A stretch of DNA of 64,000 bases from an uncultured Acidobacteriota bacterium (GTDB lineage Bacteria > Acidobacteriota > Vicinamibacteria > Vicinamibacterales > JAKQTR01). The DNA is taken from assembly GCA_963700065.1 (NCBI GenBank), contig CAVOWJ010000007.1, positions 786,637 to 850,636 of the forward strand. Reading direction: 5' to 3'. Position 1 is the stretch's first letter, and the number at the start of each line of letters is the position of its first letter. The position numbers and the translations under genes are program-made. Of the stretch, positions 32,852 through 60,104 are shown one piece after another. The notes under the pieces are model-generated. The model did no database searches. It had not been told where the DNA came from and saw only the letters and a list, made by a program, of their open reading frames with translations.

Positions 32852-32921
32852 CGCCGGGTCGATAGACAACTGGATGAGTTTCGCACGGGCACCTGTGGGC
32901 GCATGCCCGCGGAGGAGCGAT

Positions 32922-34595
32922 ATGAACGGCAGGTTCTCGATCGTGCGGCGGGCGGTGACCCTGGCACTGGGCGCGGCCCTCGTCGCCGGGCTGGCGCTGC
33001 CCGCCTCGGCGCAGCACCGGGCGCGGCTGTCGAAAGACCTGGCCGCCGAGCTGGCATCGCCCACGCGCGCGGCCCTCCAGGTGATCGTGGAGGGCGACGA
33101 CGCGCGGGTGAAGACGCTGGCGGCGCGCTACGGCTTCCGCGTCACGAAGATGCTCGACGGCGCCGCGGTTCTCGAGGGCTCGGCCAACCAGGTCGACGCG
33201 GCCGCCGGCGATCCCGACATCGCGCGCCTCTCGCTCGACGCCGACGTGCGCGGCCAGATGGCCGTCACGCGCGAGACCATCGGCGCCGACCTCGCCTACG
33301 GCGGCTTCGGCGGCGTGCCTGGCGTTACCGGCAGCGGTGTCGTCGTGGCCGTCATCGACTCGGGCGTCGATCGCACCAATCCCGCCGCCGCGGGCAAGGT
33401 GCTCGAGACGGTCGACTTCACCGCCACCGGCGACAACGATCTTTTCGGCCACGGCACGCACCTCACCAGCGTGATTGCCGGCAACGAGCTGGGCGGCAAC
33501 TACGGCGGCGTCGCCCCCGGCGCGCGCATCGTCTCGCTCAAGGTGCTCGAGGCCGACGGCTCGGGCAAGACCAGCAACGTCATCCGCGCCCTCAGGTGGG
33601 TGCGCGAGAACGCCCGGCGCCTCAACATCCGCGTGGTCAACGTGTCGCTCGGCCACCCCGTGTTCCAGTCGTACAAGGACGACCCGCTGGCGCAGGCCGT
33701 GCAGAAGACCATCGACGCGGGCCTGGTGGTGGTGGCCTCGGCGGGCAACTACGGCAAGGTGACCATCGACGGCAAGGACGTGCCCGTGTATGGCGGCATC
33801 TCGTCGCCGGGCAACCTGCCCGACGTCATCACCGTGGGCGCGCTCAACACCAGGGGCACCGTCAACCGGTTCGACGATCAGGTGACGACGTACAGCTCGA
33901 GGGGGCCGAGCGCGATCGACCGGGTGATCAAGCCCGATCTCGTGGCGCCGGGCAACAAGGTGTATGGCGCGCTGGTGACTGGCAGCACCGTGGACCAGAC
34001 CGCGCCGGCGGGCACCGAGATGCCGTCGCCGAACGGCACGCCCATGGTGGCCATGAGCGGGTCGAGCGTGTCGGCGGGCGTTGTGACCGGTGTCGTGGCG
34101 CTGATGCTCGAGGCCAACCCGTCGCTCGGCCAGCGGCACGTGAAGATGGCGCTGCAGCTCTCGGCGCAGTTCATGCCCGAGGGCGTGCTCGTCGCCGGGT
34201 CGGGGAGCCTGAACGCGGCGGGGGCCGTGTGGATGGCGAAGAACGGACCCAGCCCGAAGGTGCCCAAGGCGCTCATCGACGTGGACGAGATTGCGGGCAG
34301 CGGGGTGCTCTTCTGGAGCGGGAAGAAGAGCGGGCTGAAGGACATCCTGCACGGGAGCCGGATCATCTGGGGCGATCGCATCATTTGGGGCGATCGCATC
34401 ATCTGGGGCGATCGCATCATCTGGGGCGATCGCATCATCTGGGGCGACCGGATCATCTGGGGCGACCGCATCATCTGGGGCGACCGCATCATCTGGGGCG
34501 ACCGCATCATCTGGGGCGACCGCATCATCTGGGGCGATCGCATCATCTGGGGTGACCGGATCATCTGGGGCGACTGCCTCGCTTCGGGGGAATAG
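32922..34595 (+). CDS. secreted S8 (subtilisin-like) serine peptidase with C-terminal ([SD]RIIWG)x12 array; paralogue of 25913..27838
   Basis: Start MNGRFSIVRRAVTLALGAALVAGLALPASA follows SD GGAGGAG. Triad contexts VIDSGVD, HGTHLTS and SGSSVSAG. Confidence 0.9.
   Translation: MNGRFSIVRRAVTLALGAALVAGLALPASAQHRARLSKDLAAELASPTRAALQVIVEGDDARVKTLAARYGFRVTKMLDGAAVLEGSANQVDAAAGDPDIARLSLDADVRGQMAVTRETIGADLAYGGFGGVPGVTGSGVVVAVIDSGVDRTNPAAAGKVLETVDFTATGDNDLFGHGTHLTSVIAGNELGGNYGGVAPGARIVSLKVLEADGSGKTSNVIRALRWVRENARRLNIRVVNVSLGHPVFQSYKDDPLAQAVQKTIDAGLVVVASAGNYGKVTIDGKDVPVYGGISSPGNLPDVITVGALNTRGTVNRFDDQVTTYSSRGPSAIDRVIKPDLVAPGNKVYGALVTGSTVDQTAPAGTEMPSPNGTPMVAMSGSSVSAGVVTGVVALMLEANPSLGQRHVKMALQLSAQFMPEGVLVAGSGSLNAAGAVWMAKNGPSPKVPKALIDVDEIAGSGVLFWSGKKSGLKDILHGSRIIWGDRIIWGDRIIWGDRIIWGDRIIWGDRIIWGDRIIWGDRIIWGDRIIWGDRIIWGDRIIWGDRIIWGDCLASGE
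34356..34574 (+). repeat. 18-bp in-frame tandem repeat x12 encoding [SD]RIIWG
   Basis: 219 nt. The synonymous unit variants match those of the 27347 array. It is followed by CLASGE and a stop. Confidence 0.95.
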
Positions 34596-34715
34596 GCTCT
34601 CCTACTGAGCTAGCCCTCAAGGGTTAGCACTACTTCGTCAGACTCGATCCTTCATACCACGCAATCCGATGTTGGCTACTGGTACAAATGACGCGAATTC
34701 TCTACGATTGTATGC

Positions 34716-35968: not shown

Positions 35969-37234
35969 CTAGATCATCCTTGGAAGTGTCAACGATCTTT
36001 CGCACTCTCTGCGGTGACCTCTGCCTGATTGCAACGCGATCTTGGCACGAGCCTCGTCGGTAAACACCAATGCCGCGGTCAGGTAGCGTCGAGATCCCCA
36101 GCGCCTCGCGGCCACATGCCGCAGACGCGCGGCGACGAGCATCAAGGCCGATTGGCCGTTCGGGAACGCCCCGACGACCCGTGTCCGTCGGAGGATCTCG
36201 CGAATGATCCGCTCCAGCGGGTTGTTGGTGCGTGTCTGGCGCCAGTGCGTGCAGGGAGACGCATCGTAGGTCAGCGTGTCGCCGACGGCCTCCTGGATGA
36301 GCTTGGCCGCCTTGCCCAGCTTCATTCTCTCGAGCTTCGATGCCACCTCCTTCGCCTTGGCCTTCGCGGCCGTCCGGTCTTCCTGCGCGTGAATCGCCTT
36401 CAGCATCCGGACGACATCCGCGAACTTGCCATCGGGGATCAGGCTGAACACATTCCGGTACCCGTGCACGACGCAGCGCTGCCACCGCACGTCGGGAAAG
36501 ACCTCCGCGGCGGCATCCACGAGGCCGACGCAGGCATCGCTGACAATGAGCTGCACGCCGTTCAACCCGCGGTCTTTGAGGTGCCGGCGGGACCCCAGCC
36601 AGCCGCTGCGGCTTCCTTGTCGCGCTCGGCAACGCCCAGGATGTGTCGATAGCCATCGATCCCGATGCCGATCGCCACCAGCACCGAGACGTTGCGCACT
36701 TCGCCGGGCCAGCTCCGCGTCAGCACGAGCCCATCGAGGAACACCTAGAAATGGCTCCCATCGATCGGTTTGGTGCGCCAGGTTTTAGTCTGGGCGTAGA
36801 TCCGCTGATTCAAGCGGCGGACGGTCCCGGAGCTCACCCGCGTACCCCAGAGGGCTTCGGTGATGTCTTCGACCCGGCGCACACTGACTCCAGCAAGATA
36901 CCTCTCGACCAAGGCCTCTTCGACCGAGGCTTCTCGACGGCGGTACCGCTCGATGATCGCCGTTTCGAAGGCGAGCCGGCGCAGCTTCGGCACCTTCAGG
37001 GTGACTTCGCCCGCCATCGTCTCGAGCTGCCGCTCGTAATGACGGGCCCGGGTGTCCACCCGTTCCGGTGACCGCTCGTACCGCTGGGCGCGGCAGATGC
37101 GATCGGCTTCCGCATCCAAGATGCGTATTCAGCGTCTCTTCCGCAATGCCGAGCACGACCTCATCGACGCGCACCTTGAGCTTCGTCTCGTCAACGGATA
37201 CCGCCTCGAGCCGGGTAGTGGTATCGTCCTGCAC
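35969..37234 (-). mobile_element. IS256-family (mutator-type) transposase pseudogene
   Basis: The pieces are ORFs 36785..37234, 36745..37119, 36562..36744 and 35969..36565 (SVLVAIGIGIDGYRHILGV, LIVSDACVGL, WQRCVVH, RTNNPLER). It has an in-frame TAG at 36745 and frame shifts near 37125 and 36600. Confidence 0.8.
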
Positions 37235-37478: not shown

Positions 37479-40331
37479 CTAGCCGTACCAGAGAAACCCG
37501 AGCCGCTGACGCTTCAGGTACAGCCCCTTCCGCGAGAGTCCGAGTCTCCTCGCTGCAACATCCAATCTTCCTTCAGAGCATTCCAAGGCATACGTGATGG
37601 CCGCGCGTTCGACTGCTTGAAGACTCACTTCCAGTGGCCTGTCGATCCTAACGGTAATAGTCGGCACTCCAGAGACTGGCTGTTCAACTGGCTCCCGTGA
37701 GTGCCCCCTGATCCTCGCGTCTAGGTCTATGACATCGATGACCGAATCCGAGTTACCCAACGCCACGAGGCGGCGAATCTCGTGCGAGAGTTCCCTAACG
37801 TTGCCGGGCCATGGGTACAACAGAAGATGCTCCATCGCCGCTTCTGAAAGGCTAATCCTGTGCTTCCCGCACTCAGAGGCGTACCTCGAGAGGAACATCG
37901 CAATCAACGGAGCTACCTCTTCACGCCGCTCCCTGAGAGGCGGCAAGCGGAAGCGCACTACATTCAGACGGTAGAATAGATCTTCGCGAAAGCGGCCTTC
38001 CGCTACCAGAGCCTCGAGATTCGCGTTTGTGGCGGCGATGATCCGGACCTTGACTCTCCGCGGAACGGCTTCTCCAAGAGCTTGCACTTCGCCGGTGTCC
38101 AAGAAACGGAGAAGTTTCGGCTGGGTTTCCAGCGGGAGCTCCCCCACCTCGTCGAGCAGCAGCGTTCCACCTTCTGCTGCATGGATCACTCCCTTGAATC
38201 CTTGGGCCGCTCCTGTGAACGCCCCCCTTCGATACCCGAACAGTTGGCTGTCCACCATGTCGCGTGGCACAGTCGAGCAGTTGAACGCTACAAAACGAGC
38301 GTCCGACTCTCCCGACGCCCGATGGATGCTTCGGGCAATCACCTCTTTGCCGGTGCCGCTTTCACCCGTCAGCAGGACAGTTATGCCGAGCGGTGCAACC
38401 CGTCTTGCAGATGCGAGCAAGTTGAGCATCGCCGGGGAACGAAACAGGCCCTCTGCGTCGCTGGAGTGGGACCGATTGCTCTCTTCGCCGACTCGTATTG
38501 ATACCCGCTGTTCTGACACTCTCGACCGTCGAATGACCGACAACAACCTAGCCAAGCCATAGCAACCACTCAGGGACCTATCGGAGTCGGCCGGCGAGAT
38601 CAGCAAGTCATAGCTATGGGATTGTCGTGAACCCAAGCAGATTCTGATGGTGCCTTCAGGTCGTCCGACTTCCAAGCTGCTTGGAGCCGACGCCGTGACT
38701 GGATAGTCACACGTAGAAACTGGCGAGACCATCGTGCCCGACGTCTCGAGAACCGCTCCCGAGCGAATCCACCCAATGGAGACCAGACTCCTCAGTGCTT
38801 CCTCACCCAAGGACAACGGATCTGTCGCAAGGTCCATCAGTGAGCAAAGCAGCGTCGCAAGGTCGTCTGTCTCGCAGTGCGGTCGACCAAGAACGGAACT
38901 TGTCGCGTCAAGATGGCAACGTATGATAGTTGGTTTCCAAACCGAATCTCGTGCGCCAGTCGCGCTCCTTGTAGCGCTCTGAGAACCAAGCCGGCCCGCC
39001 AACTCCAATAACTGGTCGACCGCTTCGACGACACTGCTTGCCTCGCCGGTAGCTCCTACCACACGAAGTGCCTGGATGCTGAGGGATACCGCCCCCCGGT
39101 CGCCCGCGGCGGCGGCCAGCATTGCGTGAGTAGCCGACAGGGTGACCGTCGGACCAGATTTCGGTGCTTCCAGGTCGGAGCGCAGGTAGGCTTCAACAGT
39201 CGAACGCGCGCCACTTCGTTTGTTCAGCCGAGCAAGCGCCAGGACCTCCAGGGCGCCCAGTTGAACTCGCGGGAACGAACGCGATTGCAGATGCTCACGC
39301 GGTTCGGCGGTGCGAATGAGTTCCAGCGACTCCTGCCAGAGGCCAAGCCGTTGGAGGAGGCGCGCCTCGGTGCGCAGGTTCCAGTTTCGATGCCATGCGG
39401 ACCTCAACTGGGAGTGACGTGTGCTCATTTCGTGCGCAGTCTTCAGCGAAGCCGCACAACCTTCGACGTCACCGCTGACAAGCTGGGCTTCGGCGAGCGT
39501 TTCAAGGAGCAGGCCCCAGACCTGTTCTTCTTTGCTCGGCTTGCGGAGAGCGACGGACAGGCAGGTCGTTGCCCGGGCAGCCTGCCCGACCGCCAAGTAC
39601 GCCGCGGCCATGTCAGCTAAGGCAATCACGCCGGTCAGCGCGTGGCCGGACTCTGCAGAGGAAGCCAGTGCATGCCTCGCGGCATCGAGCGAGTCGAGGT
39701 AACGCCCCTCCAAGTAGTTGAGGCAGGACTCGTGTAGATCCAGAAGGCCCCGGAGCCAGTGGTTAGGAAAACTCCTGAGAAGCGAACATGCTATATCGGT
39801 ATGATGTCTCGACGTGTCCAAGTCTCCCCGCTTGGCGTAGTACTCAGCAAAGAAGATCTGATGGGCGATCGACACGGCCGGAACAGCCGCCTGTTCTACG
39901 TTGCATCTAAGAATAGAGAGAACATCAACATCGAGATCTCTGCCATCGAGATCTGCGGAGACGCTCAAGAGGCGAAGCTGGCTCCAAGCTCGGAGTTCGG
40001 GTGAGTCGATCTGCTCTGCGATTTGGTAGGCTCTCCGGAAGGACCGCACCGAGTCATCTAGGTGTCCCAACTGCTTCGACACTAGCCCCTCGACCATCAT
40101 GCACCGAATTCGATCGGACTCGGTGAGTCGTGGGGTCTTCCGCAGAGCGTTGATCTGGACCCGCGCCTCGGCTAGGTGACCTGTTCTCTCGAGCAGTTCA
40201 GCCATGAGCAGCCTATCGCCCGAGCCAGATCCTGGTCCGCTGGCCACCGGATGCTGCCTTAGGAGGTCAATCGCCGCCTGAAACCTCCCCTCGGAAGCAA
40301 GGGACCTCGCGTGAAGCGTTTGGTCGGGCAT
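37479..40331 (-). CDS. sigma-54-dependent transcriptional activator (bEBP) with ~600-aa TPR-like N-terminal region
   Basis: ORF track 950 aa. Walker A GESGTGKE, GAFTGA intact (RRGAFTGAAQG), Walker B LLLDEVGE, PWPGNVREL, and C-terminal Fis-type HTH RLGLSRKGLYLKRQRLG. No receiver, PAS or GAF domain recognised. GC is visibly lower. Confidence 0.9.
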   Translation of the reverse strand: MPDQTLHARSLASEGRFQAAIDLLRQHPVASGPGSGSGDRLLMAELLERTGHLAEARVQINALRKTPRLTESDRIRCMMVEGLVSKQLGHLDDSVRSFRRAYQIAEQIDSPELRAWSQLRLLSVSADLDGRDLDVDVLSILRCNVEQAAVPAVSIAHQIFFAEYYAKRGDLDTSRHHTDIACSLLRSFPNHWLRGLLDLHESCLNYLEGRYLDSLDAARHALASSAESGHALTGVIALADMAAAYLAVGQAARATTCLSVALRKPSKEEQVWGLLLETLAEAQLVSGDVEGCAASLKTAHEMSTRHSQLRSAWHRNWNLRTEARLLQRLGLWQESLELIRTAEPREHLQSRSFPRVQLGALEVLALARLNKRSGARSTVEAYLRSDLEAPKSGPTVTLSATHAMLAAAAGDRGAVSLSIQALRVVGATGEASSVVEAVDQLLELAGRLGSQSATRSATGARDSVWKPTIIRCHLDATSSVLGRPHCETDDLATLLCSLMDLATDPLSLGEEALRSLVSIGWIRSGAVLETSGTMVSPVSTCDYPVTASAPSSLEVGRPEGTIRICLGSRQSHSYDLLISPADSDRSLSGCYGLARLLSVIRRSRVSEQRVSIRVGEESNRSHSSDAEGLFRSPAMLNLLASARRVAPLGITVLLTGESGTGKEVIARSIHRASGESDARFVAFNCSTVPRDMVDSQLFGYRRGAFTGAAQGFKGVIHAAEGGTLLLDEVGELPLETQPKLLRFLDTGEVQALGEAVPRRVKVRIIAATNANLEALVAEGRFREDLFYRLNVVRFRLPPLRERREEVAPLIAMFLSRYASECGKHRISLSEAAMEHLLLYPWPGNVRELSHEIRRLVALGNSDSVIDVIDLDARIRGHSREPVEQPVSGVPTITVRIDRPLEVSLQAVERAAITYALECSEGRLDVAARRLGLSRKGLYLKRQRLGFLWYG

Positions 40332-41249: not shown

Positions 41250-44200
41250 TCAGGCCGTGGCCTCCCGCTCCGACGCCTTGCGCTGCAGCCGTCGCCAGGT
41301 GTGCCACTCATGACCGGTGACCAGCGAGTAGCGCGCCACCTCCGCCACCTCGCTTGCGCACTGGCCCACGGTGGCCTTGATACCCATGGCCCCAAGCTTG
41401 TCGGCCAGCCCGATCCATTCCGCGGACGGCCCGGCCGCCTCGCCGGCGGCGTCCGCGACCGGCGTGCGCAGCGCCTTTACCAGCGTCACGCCCTCCTTGT
41501 CGAACGGCGCGGTCTGCTCGGCCAGCCCGCGCAGCAACTCGGTCGCGACGGCCGGCCGCCCGAACAGCACGGCCAGCATCAGCAGGCAGGGCTGCACGCG
41601 GCCGGCGCGCTCGAAGGCCTCGAGCGACTCGACCGACTTGCTGGCCTTGAGCACCCGGTACACGTTGACCAGCCGCTTAGCGATGCGCGGCGTGGGCAGC
41701 AGCGGGAGCAGCTGGCCGATGAACTCGCGCTCGTCCTCGCTGAACTGCACCGGTGCGGAGGCGGGAAGCGGCCGGCCGGCGTCCTTGCGCTGGACCGCGG
41801 GTTGCGTTGACGGCGTGGGCGGCGGCGTGCCCGTGACCGTCGGCGCCGACCCGGTCGAGCCGGTTGGCGTCGGCAGTGCCGAGCCGCCGCGGTCCGCGCC
41901 GGGTGCCGGTACAGGTGCGGGGACACCCCGCGCAGCGACCGCAGGCACGGCCTGGCTGTCCTGCGTGAGGAAGTCGACGTAGCCCTGGAAGTGCTTCTGG
42001 TTCATTGGTGCCAGCGCATAGGTGATCTGGAAGATCTTCTCCAGGTAGTTCTGCGCGGTCGACGCCCGCAGTCCGTCGCGCTCGTCACGCCCGTTGTGGC
42101 GGTCGTCCTCGGCGCCGAGCAGGTCGGCGTAGTACACGTCGAGCGAGCGTGTGAGCCAGCGCGAGTCCACCGCCACGATCACCACGAACAGATCCAGCGC
42201 CAGCAGCAGGTGCACCGCCTCTAGCATGTTGACCACGTGCGCCGGGCGGCAGCGGTCCAGATCGTCGACATACAGCACGATGCGGTCGATCGGCCGGATG
42301 GCCTGCTTGCCGTCACTGGGCGACTCGCCGCGCGCGGCATCGCGCAGTTCCTTCATCACCCGCGCCAGCTCGCGGAAGTCCTTGTGCACCAGCGAAATGA
42401 TTCCCTGCTGGGAGCGGTACTGCGTGGACTGCACGCGCTCGCGGATGAACGCGCCCAGCCGCTGCAGCGGCTGCAGCGCGGCCTGCTGCGTCAGCAGCTC
42501 GGCCAGCCGCGCCCTAGCGGTCTTTACGCTCGCCTGCACGCTCTCCAGCTCGCGGCGCGCCTTGTCCACCGCCTCGGCCTTGTCGATGCGGCCCTGGTCC
42601 TTGCTGGTGCGCGCCTCCTTCAGCTGTTCGTCGTACTTGCGGTTCACGCTGGCCAGCTCGCCGGCCAGCGCATCCAGCTTCTGGCGCGCTGTGCCCAGCG
42701 GGGCCACCAGCGTGCCGACGAAGCCCGCCACGGCCACCAGCGCCTTGGAGGCGGCTTCCTCCCAGTCCTGCAGCATGCTGGCATCCACCAGCAGCCACAC
42801 CCCCGCCGTCAGCGCCAGCACGCCGGCGGTAGGCACCGCGATGTGGCGCACCGGCTTGTTCAGCAGCACGGTGGCCAGCGTGCGCAGCCGGCTGCCCGAG
42901 GCGGCCAGCTCGCGCGCGGCCGTCTCCACGTCCTTGATCGTGTCGATCGACTGGTGCCAGCCGGTCGCGCGCACCAGCGCCTGCAGCTTGTCGAGCCCCT
43001 CCTGCCGCAGGTAGCCGTTGAGCGCCAGGATCTCCTGCTTCTTCTTCAGGTCCTCCTCGGCCAGTTCGAGCGCCTTCTCGCCCGCCTGCACCTGCACCTC
43101 GGCCTGGTGCACGGCGCCGCGCGCCTCCTCGATCATCTTGCGCAGCAGCTCGCGCGCATCCTCGCCGGTGTCCTGCGCGGGGCGCACCGCGTCCCAGATG
43201 CGGTCGAAGATCTCGGTGATCAAGCTCGCCCACAGGTTGGCGTCAGACGCGTGCCAGGCGTTGAACTCGATCTCCACCACGCGCTGGTGCAACTCCGGCC
43301 GCCCTTCGTCCTGCAGTGCCTTCACCGACTTCTTGATCTGCTCGATGAAGAACGACTTGCCCGAGCCCCAGTCGCCCAGCAGGCCGATCGACAGCGGCGG
43401 ATGCACGTCCTTGTCGAGGATCAGCCGCGCGAACGCGCTCGCCTCGGCCTCCACCCCCAGCTTGTCGTCGCCCTGGTCGGTCTCCAGCGCGTAACCGGCG
43501 CGTCGCGGCCCGGGCAGCGGCACGCCGGCGCGCTGCCACCACGCCGACCACTGCGCTGCGCTGCGATGCGCGATGTCGGCGCTGGCGAACGCGTACCACT
43601 GGTCGCGCACGCGGGCGAGGTCGCGGTCGGCGGCGGCGACGGCCGGGGCCACCTCGGCATCGGGGCCGAGCAGCGCCGCGGTCACGAGGTCGCGGCCCCA
43701 CAGCGGCTGCGGCTTGTCGCCAGGCGCGGCGGGCCGCTGCGCCCAGGCGAGCGCATCGCGCAGCGCCGGGCTCAGCAGCGCCTGCAGCGCGGCGGCTGCC
43801 ATCTTGGGCACGCTGGGCGCGCCGGTGGCCGGGCTGCCCAGCAGCTCGGCCAGTCGCACGAACGCCGGTGACTTGACCCTCGGCGCCAGCTGTGCCACCG
43901 CCGCCAGCACCTGCGCGCAGCCGACCGGGTCGCCGCCCGCCAGCTGCGCGGCCAGCCGCAGCGCCTCCAGCACGTGCGGCTCCACGCCGTCGGCGGCGAG
44001 CTGCAGCGTCCATTCGGCGCCGCCCTGCGCCGGCGCCGCGGCGGACGAACTCGTTCCTCCCAAGCTCGCGGCCGCGGGCGCCTTGCCGGCGGTGGTTTGC
44101 GCCCGCGCGCCGGCCGAAACCGCGGCGGCATCATGCAGCAGCGCGCGCAGCAGGTCCCCGCAGTCGTCGTTCCAGCGCGCCTCGGAGATCTCGAACGCAG

Positions 44201-44612
44201 CGCGCCGCGCGAGCGGCTTCAGGTCGTCCGGCAGTTGGTCGCTGCGCGGCATCTTTGCGCCTTGCACCAGCACAGGCACCACGCGCACGCCGTCCTTCTT
44301 CAGCGCAGTGGCGAGTTCCAGCCGCACGAAATCCTCGGGGTCGTCGAGCCGGCGGCGGCCGTCGCCGTCGGCGGCGCTGGCCCAGTCGCGGCCGATCACC
44401 GCCAGCACCTCGGAGCCGGCCAGCACCTTCTCCAGCGCCACCACGAAGTCGACGCCGGGCTCGATGCCGTCGACGTCCATGAACACGCTGTCGGTGCCGA
44501 GCCGCTCGGCGAAGAAGTCGAACAGCCGGCCCGCGTGGCCGGCGCTGTCCTCGCGCCGGTAGCTGATGAAGAGGCGCTTCGAACCGTCGGGCCGCTGGCG
44601 TTGTTCATCCAT
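41250..44612 (-). CDS. TIR domain / KAP family P-loop NTPase fusion protein (1120 aa)
   Basis: TIR: RLFISYRREDSAGHAGRLFDFF...VFMDVDGIEPGVDF...DFVRLELATALKK. KAP: Walker A LSIGLLGDWGSGKSFF, two hydrophobic helices inserted in the NTPase (AVPTAGVLALTAGVWLLV, ALVAVAGFVGTLVAPLG), Walker B IVLYVDDLDRC, and C-terminal TPRIAKRLVNVYRVL. Confidence 0.85.
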   Translation of the reverse strand: MDEQRQRPDGSKRLFISYRREDSAGHAGRLFDFFAERLGTDSVFMDVDGIEPGVDFVVALEKVLAGSEVLAVIGRDWASAADGDGRRRLDDPEDFVRLELATALKKDGVRVVPVLVQGAKMPRSDQLPDDLKPLARRAAFEISEARWNDDCGDLLRALLHDAAAVSAGARAQTTAGKAPAAASLGGTSSSAAAPAQGGAEWTLQLAADGVEPHVLEALRLAAQLAGGDPVGCAQVLAAVAQLAPRVKSPAFVRLAELLGSPATGAPSVPKMAAAALQALLSPALRDALAWAQRPAAPGDKPQPLWGRDLVTAALLGPDAEVAPAVAAADRDLARVRDQWYAFASADIAHRSAAQWSAWWQRAGVPLPGPRRAGYALETDQGDDKLGVEAEASAFARLILDKDVHPPLSIGLLGDWGSGKSFFIEQIKKSVKALQDEGRPELHQRVVEIEFNAWHASDANLWASLITEIFDRIWDAVRPAQDTGEDARELLRKMIEEARGAVHQAEVQVQAGEKALELAEEDLKKKQEILALNGYLRQEGLDKLQALVRATGWHQSIDTIKDVETAARELAASGSRLRTLATVLLNKPVRHIAVPTAGVLALTAGVWLLVDASMLQDWEEAASKALVAVAGFVGTLVAPLGTARQKLDALAGELASVNRKYDEQLKEARTSKDQGRIDKAEAVDKARRELESVQASVKTARARLAELLTQQAALQPLQRLGAFIRERVQSTQYRSQQGIISLVHKDFRELARVMKELRDAARGESPSDGKQAIRPIDRIVLYVDDLDRCRPAHVVNMLEAVHLLLALDLFVVIVAVDSRWLTRSLDVYYADLLGAEDDRHNGRDERDGLRASTAQNYLEKIFQITYALAPMNQKHFQGYVDFLTQDSQAVPAVAARGVPAPVPAPGADRGGSALPTPTGSTGSAPTVTGTPPPTPSTQPAVQRKDAGRPLPASAPVQFSEDEREFIGQLLPLLPTPRIAKRLVNVYRVLKASKSVESLEAFERAGRVQPCLLMLAVLFGRPAVATELLRGLAEQTAPFDKEGVTLVKALRTPVADAAGEAAGPSAEWIGLADKLGAMGIKATVGQCASEVAEVARYSLVTGHEWHTWRRLQRKASEREATA

Positions 44613-45121: not shown

Positions 45122-45720
45122 CTACACCGGCGCCTGCGCCAACCCCGCGCCCACGTCCCTGTTGACCAGCGTCAGGCGCCGCGCGTTCGACGTGACCAAC
45201 GGCCAAAGGGCCGCCGCGGTCGTGCCGTCGCCCTTCGCCTCTAGCCACAGCGCCGCGAGGCCTGCCATGTGCGGCGTCGCAATGCTGGTGCCGGAAGTCG
45301 TGTGATAGCGCGCCGGCCACGGCCGGCCCGGGCCCTGCGGCTGGACCGACGCCGGGAACGGGTACGGCACCGACGAGAAGACGGCGGACCCGGGGCCGGC
45401 GATGTCCACGCCGCCGCCATTCGCGTTGATCCCGCCGTTCGAGAACGGCGAGACGCGAAGCGCTGAATCGAGCGACGCCATCGCTAGGATCGAGGGGCAG
45501 TTGGCCGGGCGGCCCACCGGGCGCGGCGACTCGAGACGCTGGTCGGTCACCGGGTCGCAGCTCTCGTTCCCCGCCGCGGCCACGATCAGCGTGCCTGGCG
45601 CGGACTGCAGCGCGCGCCGCGCCACCGTCTCCTACACCGTGGAAAACGCCTCGCCGGGCTGCACCGGGGCGCCGAGCGACACGAGACCGTTGCGGCGAGG
45701 AGAATGCGGAATGCGGAAGA
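45122..45720 (-). pseudogene. S8 subtilase pseudogene (C-terminal half; in-frame TAG and TGA upstream, Asp/His region lost)
   Basis: LIVAAAGNES ... TSGTSIATPHMAGLAALW is the catalytic Ser context. Upstream, the same frame reads SLGAPVQPGEAFSTV-TAG-ETVARRALQ and then degenerates. Confidence 0.65.
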
Positions 45721-45919: not shown

Positions 45920-46309
45920 ATGGCTGTAACTCGTGTACACCACGTTCCCAACCCCGGAAGCGTCGCGGTGTCGCCGTCGCGCGGCGAGTTCCTCTTCTTC
46001 CGCATCACGGCGAACGGGCCGATGCCCCGATTCCAATTCACGAGCGATGTAAAGGGCCAGATGCTGAATCAGGGAATGTTCCCCTCAGATCCCGCGCCTT
46101 TGTATGAGTGGACGTATCTCCGCGATCCGTCCGACGTTCAGCAGTTCGAGCTCCTGTCGGTCGCGCTGCTGTTCGCCGCGAATTCCGACTACCGCTACAT
46201 CGTCGAGCAGCGGGGCGCGGGCGGGACGATCCGGACTGTCGTCGACGTCTCGTACTCGGGGCTCGCGACCGACTTCGACACCGAAGTCTTTCGCGTGCTG
46301 ATCGTATGA
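45920..46309 (+). CDS. hypothetical protein (129 aa), first gene of a 3-gene operon
   Basis: MAVTRVHHVPNPGSVAVSPSRGEFLFFRITANG... An alternative start lies at 45875. The stop overlaps the next start (ATGA). Confidence 0.5.
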   Translation: MAVTRVHHVPNPGSVAVSPSRGEFLFFRITANGPMPRFQFTSDVKGQMLNQGMFPSDPAPLYEWTYLRDPSDVQQFELLSVALLFAANSDYRYIVEQRGAGGTIRTVVDVSYSGLATDFDTEVFRVLIV

Positions 46310-47676
46310 GAGGCGCGATGATGAAACACCTGCACTGCTCCGCCGCCGCGGCCCTCGTCATGTGCGTAACCGCGCTCCTCCCGTGCGCCGCGTCAGCACA
46401 GCCGGCCACGCCTGACACGTTCGTCACGTGGATCGAAGCGCGCGTGCAGGCGGCCATCGCGGCGAAAAAGGCCGCCGCACAGGCCGCCGCGGAAAAGAAA
46501 AAGGTGGGCGACAACGGCAACGGAATCGCCAATCAGAAGGAGGCGCCGAGCAGTGACAGCGCGTCGACGTCTCTCGTGGACAACAGCGCCGCGAGCGATT
46601 TCGTCTCGCTGGCGTTGAGCCTTACCGGCCTGACACCGACAGCGGACGACGAGTCGAAGCCGAAATCGGGCTCCATCACCGTGACGGCCTACAGCCTCGC
46701 GGCGGGGATCAAGGGCGTCGGGCTGACGGACCCGGAGTTCTACAAGAATGCGACGAACTGGCGTCGCCTTGCTCTCACGATCGGATCCGAGGCCTCCAAG
46801 CCCGAAGACGTCTTCACCGACAAGCCTTCGACGAACATCGGTGCCAAGTTCCTGATCATCAACAGCCGCGACGTCTACAGCACCTACGCCAAGGACGAAT
46901 TCAAGACGATGGACGCTGCGGTCGGCGTATTTCAGCAACTCGAACTCAACGACAGAAACCGGCTCGAATGCGTGATCTTCCGCGCGGTAACCGGACGCGT
47001 GGTTTCCACCCCAGACTGCCGGACGACCGACGCGACGGCGTTCGCCGCGTTCCTGGCAACGAATCCGTTCGACCTGGCGCAATGGCCGAGTAACCGCGCC
47101 GCGCTCGAGAAGCACGCCGACGCGATGGCCGCCGTCAACGGCATCGTCGAGAGCATTGCTGCCGCCAAGGTGATCGCGCTCGACAGTGTGGCCGAGGCTG
47201 TCGAACGAATTCAGAAGGCGCGGCAGTTGTCGGTCGCGTACTTCACGAAGCAGCGCCAGGACGAGGGCACCAACGAGCATCGTCTCGAGCTGATCTTCGA
47301 CTACGGGCTGAGCGATCGCCTGAACTGGACCGTGAACGGCAGCTACGACCACAAGGATCGGAAGAAGGCGGAGATGAAGGACTCGGACAGCGGCCGGCTT
47401 GCGACGGAGTTCCAAGCGAAGCTGACCGGTCGCGGCAGCCAGGTGTGGAGCGCAGCGCCGGTCCTCATCGCGGGATCTGCCGAAGCGTCGAAGGAGTCGG
47501 GCGCCGACTGGCTGGTCCGCACGCAGGTCAAGGTGACGATTCCGGTCGCAGCAGGCATCACCATCCCCGTGGCCCACACGTACGCGAGCCGCGCCTCTGA
47601 GGGCATCGAGGCGGGATCGGCGTTCAGGTTCTCGCTGAGCATCGACCCCGTTCGCCTGCGCGAGCGCTTCCGTTAG
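46306..47676 (+). CDS. secreted protein with Ala/Lys-rich helical N-region and beta-barrel-like C-terminus (putative outer-membrane protein)
   Basis: Signal peptide MRGAMMKHLHCSAAAALVMCVTALLPCAASA. The C-terminal ~170 aa show alternating hydrophobic strands (LELIFDYGL, LNWTVNGSY, VKVTIPV, SAFRFSLSI). Confidence 0.6.
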   Translation: MRGAMMKHLHCSAAAALVMCVTALLPCAASAQPATPDTFVTWIEARVQAAIAAKKAAAQAAAEKKKVGDNGNGIANQKEAPSSDSASTSLVDNSAASDFVSLALSLTGLTPTADDESKPKSGSITVTAYSLAAGIKGVGLTDPEFYKNATNWRRLALTIGSEASKPEDVFTDKPSTNIGAKFLIINSRDVYSTYAKDEFKTMDAAVGVFQQLELNDRNRLECVIFRAVTGRVVSTPDCRTTDATAFAAFLATNPFDLAQWPSNRAALEKHADAMAAVNGIVESIAAAKVIALDSVAEAVERIQKARQLSVAYFTKQRQDEGTNEHRLELIFDYGLSDRLNWTVNGSYDHKDRKKAEMKDSDSGRLATEFQAKLTGRGSQVWSAAPVLIAGSAEASKESGADWLVRTQVKVTIPVAAGITIPVAHTYASRASEGIEAGSAFRFSLSIDPVRLRERFR

Positions 47677-47689
47677 TTGCGAGGGCGCC

Positions 47690-49042
47690 ATGCCGATTCG
47701 CGACATCCTTGCACCCGGCGCAGTCGTGGTGGGCATGGCGACGGCAGCCCTCCTCGGCCAGAACCAGCTGCAGATTGTGAAGGGCACCGCGCGATCCGAC
47801 GTTCCGCCGGTTCCATCGAGCGCGCCGGCAGTGCCAGGCGCCGCCGGCGCGACTCCCGGATTGACCGGCGTTTCCTTCTCTGGGCGCGTGGGATTTGGCG
47901 ACGCGAGGCTGACGCTCAACCGCATGGTCGGCGGCGCCTACGTCTCCGACTTCTTCGTGACGAACCCGGAATGCTCCGATCAGGTCGTGTCGTTTTCGGT
48001 GCTGATCCTCGATCGGAACCGCCAGCGGCTCGGAGTAAATTCCGTCGTGACGCGCGTCGAGCGGAATCCCGTTCCCTCCGAAGTCCCTCAAGAGCCAGCC
48101 GGACAGTGGCGGCTGACGCCGGGAGAGGCCGACCTCTTCAGGGTCACGATCGCCCCACCGTTGGCGAGCGGTCCAGCCCAGGGTTGGTTCGACCTGGCGT
48201 GGAGCGCGCTCCGCAGCGCGCCGATGAACTACGGCCACTGGACGGGACATCTGCCTTCCACCGGCATTCTTCTCCTCACGCGCCATTCGGCGCCGGGAGA
48301 GCTCAAGAACGAGAACAATGGCACGAGCTGCGTGAAGGGCATGACGCTGATCAGCCGCGCGGCCCTGCCGCTCCTCCTCGATCCTCCGCTGCCGTCGGGC
48401 CTGGATACCGGCGTCCTCTTCGCCTCTCTTATTCTGGCGTCGGGCGTGACGCTGCTCTGCGTGGTATTCGTCTTCCGCAGCTCCACGAACTTCTGGGATC
48501 CGATGCCGGCCGTGCCGTTCGACCTCAAGAACAGCTGGGCCGCTAACCTCGCTGTCGGCGGAGGACTGATTACCGCGCTCATGACCACCGCGATTCTGTC
48601 GGCGGATCGCTATTCGACTAACAGCTCGTCGTACGGCGTGCTCGCCGCTCTCTTCGCCGCCCTCGTGCCTCTGGGCGCGGCGCTGTATGGACTGTCCCGG
48701 CCGGCCTCCGGGCCCGCGCAGGGTGACGGATACGTCGTCAGTTTTCTGGGAACGACGCTGATCGTGCTGTGGGGGGCCTTCGGTCAGATGCTGCTGATCG
48801 GCATGTTCCTCCGGGAGCTGGACTTGGCCGGCGTCCTCACGCCTTTTTCGGCGGGAGTGCTCATCGTCACGACAAAGGTCGTGATTATCAGCCTGGCAAT
48901 CTATGCCGTCATTGGATCGCTTGGCACCATCGCGGAGGGTGCGCCGGCACCTCAGCCAGCCAAACCAGCGACGGATGGACAGGACCAGGCACCGCAGCGG
49001 CCCGCCCTCCCCGCGAATCGCCGGCCCGCCGCGATGATCTGA
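47690..49042 (+). CDS. integral membrane protein (soluble N-domain plus ~5 TM helices)
   Basis: ORF track 450 aa. Starts 13 nt after the upstream stop. TM stretches include VLFASLILASGVTLLCVVFVF, LAVGGGLITALMTTAIL, VLAALFAALVPLGAALYGL and FLGTTLIVLWGAFGQMLLIGMF. Confidence 0.65.
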   Translation: MPIRDILAPGAVVVGMATAALLGQNQLQIVKGTARSDVPPVPSSAPAVPGAAGATPGLTGVSFSGRVGFGDARLTLNRMVGGAYVSDFFVTNPECSDQVVSFSVLILDRNRQRLGVNSVVTRVERNPVPSEVPQEPAGQWRLTPGEADLFRVTIAPPLASGPAQGWFDLAWSALRSAPMNYGHWTGHLPSTGILLLTRHSAPGELKNENNGTSCVKGMTLISRAALPLLLDPPLPSGLDTGVLFASLILASGVTLLCVVFVFRSSTNFWDPMPAVPFDLKNSWAANLAVGGGLITALMTTAILSADRYSTNSSSYGVLAALFAALVPLGAALYGLSRPASGPAQGDGYVVSFLGTTLIVLWGAFGQMLLIGMFLRELDLAGVLTPFSAGVLIVTTKVVIISLAIYAVIGSLGTIAEGAPAPQPAKPATDGQDQAPQRPALPANRRPAAMI

Positions 49043-49393
49043 CGTGAGCGAAGGCGGGCACGTCGGGCATACGTTTGCCGTGCACCGCGCCGAGCGTCCA
49101 AGTCTCAACAACACTGCCCGGAGCCCTGCCGGGAACGTAGGTATTCTTGGATGTTGGAATTGCGCGCGGCCGGCGATTCGACTCAGGAATGAGGGGGGTG
49201 AGCTGGGCGGAGCCAATTGTGGCGATGAGTCTGGTCCACGACGCTGCGTGCGTCCCGAGAACGCTGCCTGACGTCTGGAACCAGCCCCGGTCAGATGAAC
49301 TGCAGTGAGACCTGCGCTGTTCTGGCAGTGCCCGCAATCAGGAGATACCAGCCAAACCCCTGGCCGACTCGGCGTCAGGCGTTTAGTTCCGAC

Positions 49394-49936
49394 CTATCGC
49401 CCCCCAACCGGGCCCGGGAACGGCACCACATACCGCACCCGCCGGAGGAAGGCGCTGTCGATGTCTTCCCGACGATTGGTGGATAGGATGACTATGCCCT
49501 CATGCGCTTCCAGCTTCTGCAGCAGATAGCCGATTTCGAGGTTGGCGTAGCGATCGTGACTGTCCTTCACCTCGGTGCGCGTGCCGAACAGCGCATCGGC
49601 CTCGTCGAAGAACAAAACGGCCCCGGTGCGTTCGGCCTCCTCGAAGAGCCGCGCCAGGTTCTTCTCCGTTTCGCCGATGTACTTGCTCACCACGAGGGAG
49701 AGGTCGACCCGGTGGAGCTCGAGGCGCAGCCGGAGTGCGAGCAGTTCAGCCGCCATCGTCTTGCCGGGGCCGCTCGGGCCGACGAACAGGACGAAGAGGC
49801 AAGCCGCGATGGTGCCATCGGCGGAGGCGCCCCGATCTGAGCGCCGGCTCGAACGCTCCCGCCACTCTGCCGCGATGTCGTTCAGTGACCGACGCTGGGG
49901 CTCAGGGATGCCGTCGGGATTGCCCATGCTGAACAC
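49394..49936 (-). pseudogene. truncated AAA+ ATPase, core only; paralogue of the eCIS ATPase at 60105..61448
   Basis: FVGPSGPGKT ... LSLVVSKYIGETEKNLARLFEEA ... VLFFDEADALFG ... DSHDRYAN is collinear with the ATPase core at 60105..61448. It lacks the long N-domain and the C-terminal lid. Confidence 0.6.
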
Positions 49937-50327
49937 CCTCCTGGCTCTGCGTCATCCCGCCGCCTCGCGGAACGCCTCGCAACAGGTAGTTGGCGCCAGT
50001 TTCCCGGTGGGCGACCGGTCGCATGGGCTGTCCGAGCATGGCGGTGGTCAACGACATTCTCGCCCCAGGTGACGTTGCCAACAAGTGCTTTCCCGGCGGG
50101 AGCTTCAGGGTGTCCTGGTGCGCATCGACTGCGGATTGCCGCCGGCAGCAGAAGTTGGGAATCGACGCGTTGGCCGGATGGAGCCAATCATCGGCGATGT
50201 GTCTGGCTCGAGACGTTGCGTGCGTCCCAAGAACGCCGCCTGGAGCGCGGGAGGCAGGGATCATACAATGCCGCCGCGCCCGCTCGCGCCGGGAGGCGTC
50301 GGCGGTCCGGTGCTCCCTGAGGTCAAC

Positions 50328-51693: not shown

Positions 51694-53166
51694 TCAGAAC
51701 CGCGACCGGACTTTCCTGACCTGCCACGTGTTGTGCTTCTCGTTCAGCGTGGCGCACAGGATCGTCTCGCCGTCGGTGCGGACGTTGACCAGGCCGTAGA
51801 TCAGGCCGGCGACGATGAACGTGTCGGCCAGGGACCGCTGCACACGCGTGGGCCGCAGGTCGCCGGCCTTGGTCACCTCTGCGTGCACCACGACCGACCG
51901 CAGGTCGGTGATCTCCGACGTCTGGCCGCTCTGCGTCACCGTCACCTTCTTGGGCTCGCCGAGATTGATGCTCCTGGCCAGTTCCGTCGAGTACACCAGC
52001 GGGCTCACGATCCGGTCCCTGTCGATGGCCAGGTAGCCGGTCGTCGCGCTGGCGGCCACAACCGCGGGGCGCGGGTGGTCGTGCCCCTCGGCGTCGCCGG
52101 AGGAGATGATCGTGACGGCGGGGCGCATCGCGCTGAGGAACTCGTACGACACGTCGTCGCTGCCGTGGTGGCAGGCCTTGGCCACGTCGCACTGGAACTC
52201 GATGCGCCGGCCCGTGTAGTCGTTGAGCAGCGCCTGCTGGCTCTCCGCGTTGAGGTCGCCCGTGAGCAGGACGCGGACGCGCCCGTAGTCGAGCCGCAGC
52301 AGGAGACTGTTGCCGTTCGTGTTCTTCGAGTCGGACGAGAACCGCCGGACGGCCGGCTGGCCGTTCGCCTCCTGATCGACCGGCGCCAGCACGCGAAGGG
52401 CAACGCCGCCGCCGGCCCCGTCGAACCCGGGCACGCAGCCGTCCCGCTCGCTGAGGCGGGCGATCGGCGTGGGCTTGCCGTCTCCGCCCCGGGCCGTGGT
52501 GACCTTGCGGAGGAAACCGGCCCACTCACCCTGCAGCTTCGGCTCGCCGTCGTCTTTCAGCGCCGCCAGCACCTGGGGCCGCTTGCCGAGCAGCTGTGTC
52601 AGGAAACGGCCGTCGGCCGACGGCGGGCCCAGCCACCGCTTGCCGGTGGCCGGATTGACCCACCACGCCACGCCGGCGTGGTAGAAGGCGTCCACGTGGA
52701 CCTGGTCTGCGTCGAGTTCCTCGTCCTGCGCCGTGTCGAGCAGGTCGTTCAGGCCGCCGTAGTGGTCGGCGTCGTTGTGCGACGCGATCATCGCGTCGAG
52801 ATGAATGGTGTCGGCGCCGTAGTCCTTCGCGAACTTCCAGTCCACGAAGTCCGCCGCGCTCTTGCCCGTCGGCTGGCTCGCGCGGGTGTAGCCGCCGTCG
52901 ATCAGCACGTGCCGGTTGTCGGGCGTGCGGATGAGGACGCCGTCGCCCTGGCCCACGTCGATGAAATACAGCTCGAGGAGCGACTGGTCGCCGATCGCCC
53001 CGCTGTCGACGTACCCCAGCTTGCCCCGCGCCCGCACCTTGACGCGCGGGCCCGAGTTGTCGACGACGATCACATGATCGCCCCACAGCAGCTCGAGCAG
53101 CGTATCCTTGCCGGCGGGAGCCGCGTAGAGAGGCGTGGTGTCCGCAGCGACGTACTTCACAGCCAT
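51694..53166 (-). CDS. MBL-fold metallo-hydrolase (ComEC C-terminal-like) with N-terminal SH3-like segment
   Basis: ORF track 490 aa. YFIDVGQGDGVLI, IASHNDADHYGGL, LLTGDL and ACHHGSDD. Confidence 0.75.
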   Translation of the reverse strand: MAVKYVAADTTPLYAAPAGKDTLLELLWGDHVIVVDNSGPRVKVRARGKLGYVDSGAIGDQSLLELYFIDVGQGDGVLIRTPDNRHVLIDGGYTRASQPTGKSAADFVDWKFAKDYGADTIHLDAMIASHNDADHYGGLNDLLDTAQDEELDADQVHVDAFYHAGVAWWVNPATGKRWLGPPSADGRFLTQLLGKRPQVLAALKDDGEPKLQGEWAGFLRKVTTARGGDGKPTPIARLSERDGCVPGFDGAGGGVALRVLAPVDQEANGQPAVRRFSSDSKNTNGNSLLLRLDYGRVRVLLTGDLNAESQQALLNDYTGRRIEFQCDVAKACHHGSDDVSYEFLSAMRPAVTIISSGDAEGHDHPRPAVVAASATTGYLAIDRDRIVSPLVYSTELARSINLGEPKKVTVTQSGQTSEITDLRSVVVHAEVTKAGDLRPTRVQRSLADTFIVAGLIYGLVNVRTDGETILCATLNEKHNTWQVRKVRSRF

Positions 53167-60097: not shown

Positions 60098-60104
60098 GTC
60101 GTCC

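Follow-up and report, generated by a model that had tools for sequence, protein, structure and literature searches.

Can a single gene that joins a TIR domain to a KAP-family P-loop NTPase serve a bacterium as a complete defence system? The question is raised by an open reading frame (ORF) in a 64,000-nucleotide stretch of DNA, referred to here as the window, from an uncultured Acidobacteriota bacterium of the Vicinamibacterales (GenBank assembly GCA_963700065.1, contig CAVOWJ010000007.1, positions 786,637 to 850,636). The gene, which we call TIR-KAP, occupies window positions 41250–44612 on the minus strand and had been picked out from the letters alone (the sequence-only reading) as a candidate single-gene conflict system. 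A role for KAP NTPases in phage exclusion was reportedly predicted two decades ago. On the evidence set out below we lean, with guarded confidence, towards the view that TIR-KAP encodes a one-gene conflict protein, most likely directed against phages, in which a membrane-bound KAP NTPase switch controls a TIR NADase.

An intact gene encodes both domains

The ORF runs uninterrupted from an ATG start through 1120 codons to a stop. Both domains that the sequence-only reading had assigned to its translation hold up in Pfam searches, where each passes its curated cut-off: TIR_2 matches residues 15–125 with 31.7 bits (cut-off 28) and KAP_NTPase matches residues 390–885 with 92.1 bits (cut-off 20). 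The motifs quoted in that reading are likewise present at the places given, with the glutamate context DFVRLELATAL at residues 94–104, the Walker A motif GDWGSGKS at 413–420 and the Walker B motif LYVDDLDRC at 780–788. The G+C content at third codon positions is 0.93 in the coding frame, a value shared by the host-like genes nearby, which identifies the long ORFs on the opposite strand as shadows of the kind typical of DNA with about 70% GC. The identical protein (P0001) is encoded by two contigs, a 1.04 Mb one from NCBI and an independent one from Logan, and in a cluster collection of about 15 billion proteins it is a singleton. A scan of the window against Rfam found no RNA family.

The TIR domain has a predicted SARM1-type active site

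The TIR domain spans residues 12–160 (44133–44579, minus strand, as are all features of the gene given below), as supported by Pfam TIR_2 and by a subfamily profile compared with SARM1. This profile, made from the window TIR and its closest relatives, matched the human SARM1 TIR along its entire length (E=3.5e-16), and no other TIR structure was matched nearly as well. The predicted catalytic glutamate, Glu99 (codon 44316–44318), is invariant in an alignment of 17 TIR sequences and falls on SARM1 Glu642 (DFVRLE aligned with DWVHKE), while the invariant residues Y18, D46 and G53 fall on SARM1 Y568, D594 and G601. We verified the SARM1 residue numbering through the mutagenesis primers printed in PMC8266388. 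In that study E642A caused the largest loss of activity, and mutation of Y568, D594 or G601, of which the latter two belong to the BB loop, lowered NADase activity (PMC8266388). The alignment of these conserved Glu, Tyr, Asp and Gly residues with those of SARM1 suggests that the window TIR bears the sequence signature of an active NADase, one that would cleave NAD+ as SARM1-type enzymes do. The TIR domain with a conserved glutamate that the sequence-only reading had described is therefore confirmed, with TIR_2 above its cut-off and E99 placed on SARM1 E642.

The KAP core encloses a predicted membrane hairpin

A full-length AlphaFold model was built on 61 homologues, with the predicted local distance difference test score (pLDDT) mostly above 90 for residues 200–885 and 946–1120. 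The P-loop core of the NTPase is divided into two halves. The first (residues 383–480; 43173–43466; Pfam KAP_NTPase) contains Walker A (43353–43376), in which every residue from G413 to S420 is invariant in the 61 homologues; the second (residues 771–885; 41958–42302; Pfam, with model strands at 777–783 and 809–815) contains Walker B (42249–42275), in which Y781 and D783–C788 are invariant. The sequence features of KAP membership are present, namely a profile score above cut-off, a Walker A of the form GxxGxGKS and a Walker B of the form hhhhDDxDR. Between the two motifs lies a long, coiled-coil-like helical insert (residues 481–770; 42303–43172; AlphaFold helices at 484–762, mostly with pLDDT above 85) that carries two hydrophobic helices. 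The first of these, at residues 590–611 (42780–42845), reaches a Kyte–Doolittle maximum of 2.05 over 19 residues, and the second, at residues 620–643 (42684–42755), reaches 1.88; both are helical in the model. As the loop joining them has only eight residues, the pair is predicted to form a transmembrane (TM) hairpin, and hydropathy and the model together predict that both helices insert into the membrane. A TM pair between the Walker motifs recurs in most of the homologues checked. A KAP NTPase with its TM pair inside the P-loop domain was what the sequence-only reading had proposed, and the Pfam score, the hydropathy profile and the modelled helices all agree with it.

Structural comparison added hints only. 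Foldseek searches of the PDB with the full-length model gave no match at E<=0.001; the best probabilities were for RdrA of RADAR (0.97) and for ORC/Cdc6-type AAA+ proteins, all of them ring formers. Comparing the whole protein with PDB chains by sequence returned nothing beyond a coiled-coil artefact.

The middle and C-terminal regions are predicted to be largely folded

The sequence-only reading had described the part between TIR and KAP as an Ala-rich region of about 250 residues and of unknown function. This is accurate for residues 161–204 (44001–44132), an Ala/Gly/Ser low-complexity linker by composition, with pLDDT below 50. The remainder (residues ~205–365; 43518–44000) appears instead to be a folded, divergent Clp_N-like helical domain: modelled in isolation it has nine helices at a pLDDT of 91.6, and nearly all of its top Foldseek neighbours are the N-domains of ClpC, ClpB, Hsp104 and SMAX1. 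We make the Clp_N-like assignment with reserve, because it rests on Foldseek matches that are consistent but not significant (probability at most 0.93, template-modelling score 0.4–0.5, E between 0.1 and 5). An hhalign comparison with the Clp_N-like N-terminal domain of relatives (described below) was weak, at 19% probability, and a search of the PDB by sequence with the middle-domain profile gave no match. The domain is kept in all 61 members of the clade, in which W305, G306, R307 and D308 are fully or almost fully conserved. Adaptors and substrates dock on Clp N-domains, and by analogy the middle domain is a candidate surface for protein or peptide recognition.

The C-terminal region of about 250 residues noted in the sequence-only reading also exists, but it too resolves into distinct parts. 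Residues 886–955 (41748–41957) form a disordered linker with pLDDT below 50, rich in Pro, Ala, Gly and Thr (P16, A13, G8 and T8 among 70 residues) and varying in length among homologues. It precedes the KAP lid and a helical C-terminal domain (residues 956–1120; 41253–41747), with pLDDT mostly above 90. The conserved lid motif TPRIAKRLVNVYR (residues 974–986; 41655–41693) contains six positions, P975, R976, K979, R980, N983 and R986, that are invariant in the 61 homologues, and in relatives the Pfam KAP profile extends into this region as far as position 290 of 293.

The window protein appears to be a recent chimera

A protein search covering 5.8 billion protein clusters recovered about 67 homologues of similar length that are 40–70% identical to the window protein. 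Homology to these close KAP relatives starts only at about residue 179–210, and none of the ~67 carries a TIR domain. Their N-terminal ~180 residues are of two types. In one, the profile resembles Clp_N (against ClpC2, E=4e-4); in the other it resembles Macro domains (against the TTHA0132 and PARP9 macrodomains, E of about 1e-4), as in P0038, P0044, P0053, P0055, P0056, P0058, P0061–P0064, P0067 and P0068. Macro domains bind or hydrolyse ADP-ribose, and their presence at the position of the TIR hints that NAD+/ADP-ribose chemistry recurs on the KAP chassis. A rough neighbour-joining tree built from the KAP core places the window protein among sisters of the Clp_N type.

The TIR domain points elsewhere. 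Used as a query it matches 33,303 cluster representatives of the SARM1-type TIR, whatever their context, at E<=0.001, and it is 57–71% identical to the N-terminal TIRs of TIR-TM-PASTA proteins. These form a very large, receptor-like family (P0096–P0119 and P0247) with a cytoplasmic SARM1-type TIR at residues 1–160, mostly a single TM helix at about residues 190–213 and, in many members, extracytoplasmic ASH/PASTA domains. The 149 closest TIR representatives include no significant KAP match, the best being marginal (E=1.2e-4, 14 bits). When KAP relatives and whole TIR-PASTA proteins were aligned together in MAFFT, the TIRs came out misaligned (1 of 13 identities), and that alignment was left unused. 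A KAP part nearest to Clp_N-type sisters, a TIR nearest to TIR-TM-PASTA proteins and the singleton status of the whole mark the window copy as a chimera of recent origin: a TIR has replaced the Clp_N-like module of an otherwise typical member of the KAP clade. To judge from where homology begins, the junction lies within the low-complexity linker at residues 161–204, and the TIR-TM-PASTA receptor-like family is the likely donor.

TIR is a frequent N-terminal module of the KAP subfamily

A genome scan with one genome per species and two family motifs found the KAP subfamily at a minimum of 569 loci in species-representative genomes, spread over many phyla. Among the best 77 of these at least 569 loci, the window excluded, Pfam detects TIR_2 at the N-terminus in 19, and an iterated TIR profile raises the count to 21. 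With the window protein included, TIR_2 is present in 20 of 78 subfamily sequences and is their commonest recognisable N-terminal domain. An independent count among distant KAP matches in the protein search gave 6 TIR_2 carriers in about 27. Ranking of 80 loci was by similarity to a query that itself contains a TIR; for all but one of them the match began only in the KAP part. The impression of an unusual architecture did not survive this survey, since about a quarter of the KAP subfamily (19 of the 77 best loci) carries an N-terminal TIR. The phylogenetic side of the survey, which the sequence-only reading had proposed, found TIR scattered across the KAP tree and across many phyla, a distribution that indicates repeated gains. 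The TIRs of TIR-KAP proteins themselves belong to several subtypes and, in a rough alignment, do not all have Glu at the aligned position.

Other N-terminal domains among the best 77 loci are PG_binding_1 (six), Clp_N (four), Trypsin_2 (four) and Peptidase_C1 (two), with single cases of Metallophos, EVE, Jacalin, LRR, WD40 and nSTAND1. Variable N-terminal modules of this kind are a pattern typical of conflict systems. A phage collection gave no match to TIR-KAP, and plasmids gave nine weak matches, none of which spans both domains. KAP is not discussed in a 2020 eLife paper on conflict systems.

No partner gene is conserved beside TIR-KAP

When all flanking ORFs of the 80 loci were clustered, no conserved partner gene emerged: the most frequent family occurred at no more than 8 of the 80 loci, and the few recurrent families did so at varying distance and on varying strands. 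The absence of a conserved neighbour across 80 loci fits a one-gene system, as the sequence-only reading had supposed, and the homologues examined do not sit in a conserved housekeeping context. Sites of close relatives comprise metabolic genes, transposase fragments or a position near the antitoxin of a toxin–antitoxin pair, and integrases lie within a few kilobases of two distant TIR-KAP genes (P0072 and P0083).

Defence genes are occasional neighbours. From 21 TIR-KAP loci we took 143 neighbours, crudely called, and compared them with PADLOC at E<=1e-10, with no background control, and obtained matches to Dsr1, SspH-like, HEC-04, mad2/3/8 and AriA/GajA/PtuA-like ATPase models, several of which probably represent the same proteins. 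The clearest case is chromosomal, in Pantoea sp. FN060301 (L035, 2694–16506), where guaA and two ORFs lacking Pfam matches are followed by a RES-domain protein, TIR-KAP and a full-length Dsr1 (SIR2; 5.8e-102), so that three NAD+-targeting conflict proteins stand side by side in a culturable enterobacterium. The defence setting that the sequence-only reading expected is therefore found at some TIR-KAP loci, while in the window itself it is thin.

Comparison with known systems

On every feature tested the window protein falls within the KAP family and the TIR superfamily, and it belongs to no named system. QatA of QatABCD, also a KAP-like defence ATPase, is its best PADLOC/NCBIfam match, but the score of 83.6 bits is far from the cut-off of 600 and the match is confined to the surroundings of Walker B; the window ORFs scanned gave no QueC-like or TatD-like Pfam match and no QatBCD-like partner. 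PifA, with which the F plasmid excludes phage T7, is a KAP-family NTPase that acts at the membrane, as we propose for TIR-KAP. Its PADLOC match to the window protein (36 bits) covers only residues 379–528, the Walker A half, and PifA lacks a TIR and, reportedly, TM helices, whereas the window protein has the former and is predicted to have the latter. The PADLOC candidate PDC-S20 matches only residues 774–830 (55 bits) and not the full length. Thoeris is represented by a partial ThsB1 match of 25 bits and a ThcB4 match of 36 bits against a cut-off of 220; the window ORFs scanned include no ThsA-like, SIR2 or SLOG partner, and no neighbour of any kind is conserved over the 80 loci.

Closer likenesses lie in organisation. 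SARM1, whose TIR aligns end to end with that of the window protein (E=3.5e-16) and shares with it the catalytic Glu together with Tyr568, Asp594 and Gly601, is, like the window protein, expected to associate with membranes and to become active on oligomerising; its control comes from ARM and SAM domains and involves no NTPase, whereas control here would come from the KAP NTPase. TIR-STAND and Avs-type proteins (the bacterial NLR-like proteins and plant TNLs) follow the same logic of an N-terminal TIR, a P-loop switch and a sensor in one polypeptide. The window protein differs from them in having a KAP rather than a STAND NTPase, a predicted membrane hairpin inside that NTPase, and no TPR, LRR or WD40 sensor. 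KAP can replace STAND NTPases in predicted effector–NTPase systems (PMC8195603). Tmn, of the YobI family, is a membrane-embedded, oligomeric P-loop NTPase whose NTPase domain also contains TM helices and which detects a phage protein; it belongs to another NTPase family than KAP, lacks a TIR, and has ATP turnover and Mg2+ export as its output. PifA acts at the membrane, and Tmn is a decameric membrane assembly (PMC13001434).

KAP fusion proteins have recently been found to protect E. faecalis from phages in a manner that needs Walker B (PLoS Biol 2026, PMC13552941). EF_KAP and three KAP proteins from gut metagenomes in that study are one-gene KAPs with TM helices and a variable module, encoded in mobile or variable regions, and the window protein has the architecture that defines this class: a KAP, predicted TM helices and a variable module in one ORF with no obligatory partner. 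In those proteins the variable module is C-terminal and of unknown fold, whereas the window protein has an N-terminal SARM1-type TIR followed by the Clp_N-like domain, and the sequences are distant. By analogy, the window protein probably works most like TIR-STAND proteins and these KAP antiphage fusion proteins.

A model for TIR-KAP and its alternatives

Our working model is as follows. The N-terminal SARM1-type TIR would lie in the cytoplasm as the NAD+-cleaving effector and the KAP P-loop NTPase would act as the switch, with the Clp_N-like domain and the C-terminal helical domain as candidate ligand-binding sensor surfaces and the TM hairpin, at the tip of the long helical insert, holding the protein to the inner membrane. 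In the resting state the TIR domains would be held apart. The trigger would be a phage protein or a disturbance of the membrane, and its sensor would be the Clp_N-like domain, the C-terminal domain or the membrane segment; NTP binding or hydrolysis would then drive the KAP domains into an oligomer. For SARM1 and other TIR NADases to be active, TIR domains must lie side by side; clustering of the TIRs in the KAP oligomer would accordingly permit cleavage of NAD+, and the infected cell would halt its growth or die.

This is in essence the membrane-tethered NTPase switch with a TIR effector that the sequence-only reading had suggested, and the domains, the catalytic residues and the Walker motifs speak for it. 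Several observations weigh against it, among them the relatives that have no TIR. The ~67 closest of them have no recognisable enzymatic effector at the TIR position, where a Clp_N-like or Macro domain stands instead, so the conserved chassis must be able to work without a TIR; some output must then come from the chassis itself, and an effector is not necessarily what fills the N-terminal slot. A simple scheme of an NTPase switch controlling a TIR effector may cover only part of the mechanism. EF_KAP did not act by abortive infection at high multiplicity of infection, whereas abortive behaviour would be predicted for a TIR NADase. PADLOC and NCBIfam gave only partial, sub-threshold matches of the window protein to QatA, PDC-S20, PifA and ThsB, and among the window ORFs tested, for which the flanking ORFs were only partly scanned, there is no complete known defence system; the PADLOC run that the sequence-only reading had suggested thus yielded partial matches and no full named system. 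A literature search found no paper that describes, tests or names TIR-KAP, in line with that reading's own statement that experimental characterisation was not known to it. In the full-length AlphaFold model residues 1–196 have pLDDT below 50, the TIR part being poor because the alignment there is non-homologous, and the exact chimera is a singleton, which weakens any case for selection on the function of this particular protein.

The relatives without a TIR lend substance to the main rival account, in which the output resides in the KAP chassis: the oligomer itself would damage or gate the membrane, and the N-terminal module, whether Clp_N-like, Macro or TIR, would be a sensor, a regulator or a secondary effector. 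PifA causes leakage and depolarisation, and Tmn, of the separate YobI family, drains ATP and exports Mg2+; relatives with no N-terminal enzyme keep the middle domain, KAP, TM hairpin and C-terminal domain at 40–70% identity, and the best model-structure probabilities were for ring-forming ATPases (RdrA at 0.97, ORC/Cdc6). We nevertheless think this account unlikely. The full SARM1-like catalytic signature is retained, which would be needless in a mere scaffold, other subfamily members have clear effector enzymes in the same slot (trypsin-like and papain-like proteases, a metallophosphatase), and each subunit contributes only two rather weakly hydrophobic helices. Quite improbable, in our estimate, is a Thoeris-like arrangement in which bulk NAD+ is kept and the TIR makes a cyclic ADP-ribose isomer or related nucleotide for an effector encoded elsewhere. 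Bacterial Thoeris TIRs do make such signals, as Ofir et al. 2021 reportedly found, and the weak partial matches to ThsB (25 bits) and ThcB4 (36 bits), together with the ADP-ribose-binding or -hydrolysing Macro domain at the TIR position in sister proteins, would suit such a role; yet no ThsA-like, SLOG, SIR2 or other partner is conserved beside TIR-KAP genes, ThcB4 falls far below its cut-off of 220, and the window TIR is nearest to SARM1, a consumer of NAD+.

A role outside defence, such as signalling in envelope stress or developmental death, or quality control, or no role at all in a neutral or decaying recent chimera, we consider very improbable. It would accommodate the singleton status of the protein, the pseudogene-rich flanks (the fragmented transposase and the truncated S8 and AAA genes described below), the position of several close homologues amid metabolic genes, and the lack of phage matches and paucity of plasmid matches. 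Against it stand a 3.4 kb ORF that is intact, with host-like codon bias and every invariant residue of the family kept, and a patchy cross-phylum spread, module swapping and integrase, transposase and defence-gene neighbours such as are typical of conflict genes. A KAP switch controlling a TIR NADase is the reading we prefer.

Genomic setting in the window

Directly upstream of TIR-KAP lies the C-terminal fragment of an S8 peptidase (45122–45625, minus strand), a pseudogene that covers only positions 142–288 of the 288 of Pfam Peptidase_S8 and is only 25% identical to the other S8 genes of the window. Downstream, an IS256/Mutator-family transposase (Pfam Transposase_mut) is broken into two out-of-frame fragments (35969–37119, minus strand), with profile positions 224–371 at 35969–36565 and 38–157 at 36745–37119. 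The sequence-only reading had placed TIR-KAP between insertion sequence (IS) remnants and a protease pseudogene; the pseudogene is where it was said to be, but IS fragments are found on one side only, the downstream one. Between them and TIR-KAP lies a gene for a 950-residue sigma-54 activator with N-terminal TPR repeats (37479–40331, minus strand), whose GC content of about 0.60, against about 0.70 around it, suggests recent acquisition. We considered it as a partner of TIR-KAP and set it aside as coincidence: the similar activators found close to two KAP genes of myxobacteria lie on the opposite strand, and these regulators are abundant.

Further upstream, three genes with no family match (45920–49042, plus strand) separate the S8 fragment from a truncated AAA fragment of 180 residues (49394–49936, minus strand), which has partial, possibly generic, PADLOC IetA matches (1.1e-22). 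The S8 and AAA fragments may be remnants of an IetA/IetS-like ATPase–protease defence pair. The truncated AAA gene is bracketed by a 50-nucleotide direct repeat that is 84% identical (49221–49270 and 50193–50242); no direct or inverted repeats bounding an island were found. A 490-residue protein of the metallo-beta-lactamase (MBL) fold (51694–53166, minus strand) gives partial PADLOC matches to Avs1a, LmuA, RTasMBL and PDC-M48B (E from 1e-17 to 1e-12) and also to DRT models. The evidence for a defence island within the window itself is therefore weak, and the typical defence-island context claimed by the sequence-only reading comes down to a partial IetA-like AAA protein, the MBL-fold protein, IS fragments and pseudogenes.

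Other features of the window are recorded here in their own right. Towards its right end, 12 kb from TIR-KAP, a 1050-residue protein with eCIS_core (PF13699) and a C-terminal Ntox15 toxin domain (57008–60160, minus strand) adjoins a contractile-injection-system tape-measure protein (PF19268; 61433–62959, minus strand), which together look like an extracellular contractile injection system locus with toxin cargo. Thirteen tandem copies of an 18-nucleotide unit (34304–34627) lie at the 3' end of an S8 peptidase gene (32874–34595); the unit encodes a six-residue repeat, and the array runs about 30 nucleotides beyond the stop codon. The best named relatives (69–79% identity) of an M16 peptidase (14022–15392, minus strand) are all from Vicinamibacterales metagenome-assembled genomes, which points to an acidobacterium of that order as the probable source of the window.

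Implications

The TIR-KAP architecture is widespread and the class to which it belongs has recently gained experimental support, so it is not categorically new. The KAP antiphage fusion class was, however, demonstrated only in 2025–26, and the modules fused there are of unknown function. TIR-KAP offers a tractable counterpart, since its effector chemistry (SARM1-like NAD+ cleavage) can be predicted and its key residues (E99, K419 and D783/D784) can be named. It thereby provides a route to learning how the KAP switch is triggered, how the payload is activated and whether immunity can start at the membrane. Members of the family are found in culturable Pantoea and in Mucilaginibacter, among the latter in M. 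rubeus, and sister proteins whose sole difference lies in the N-terminal module (TIR, Macro or Clp_N-like) amount to a natural experiment in modularity. The kinship with SARM1 is also of evolutionary interest.

A wider view of the family is possible, and we hold it only tentatively: the KAP subfamily might be a membrane-embedded immune 'socket' into which N-terminal modules (TIR, Macro, Clp_N-like, protease, phosphoesterase or peptidoglycan-binding) are freely exchanged, the window gene recording a recent exchange in which a TIR-TM-PASTA receptor supplied the SARM1-type TIR. On that view an NTPase would gate an NADase tethered to the membrane, and TIR-KAP would respond to what happens at the inner membrane, for example the injection of a genome or damage to the envelope, and not to phage proteins in the cytoplasm. 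It would then be a bacterial counterpart of membrane-anchored SARM1 with a wholly different control module.

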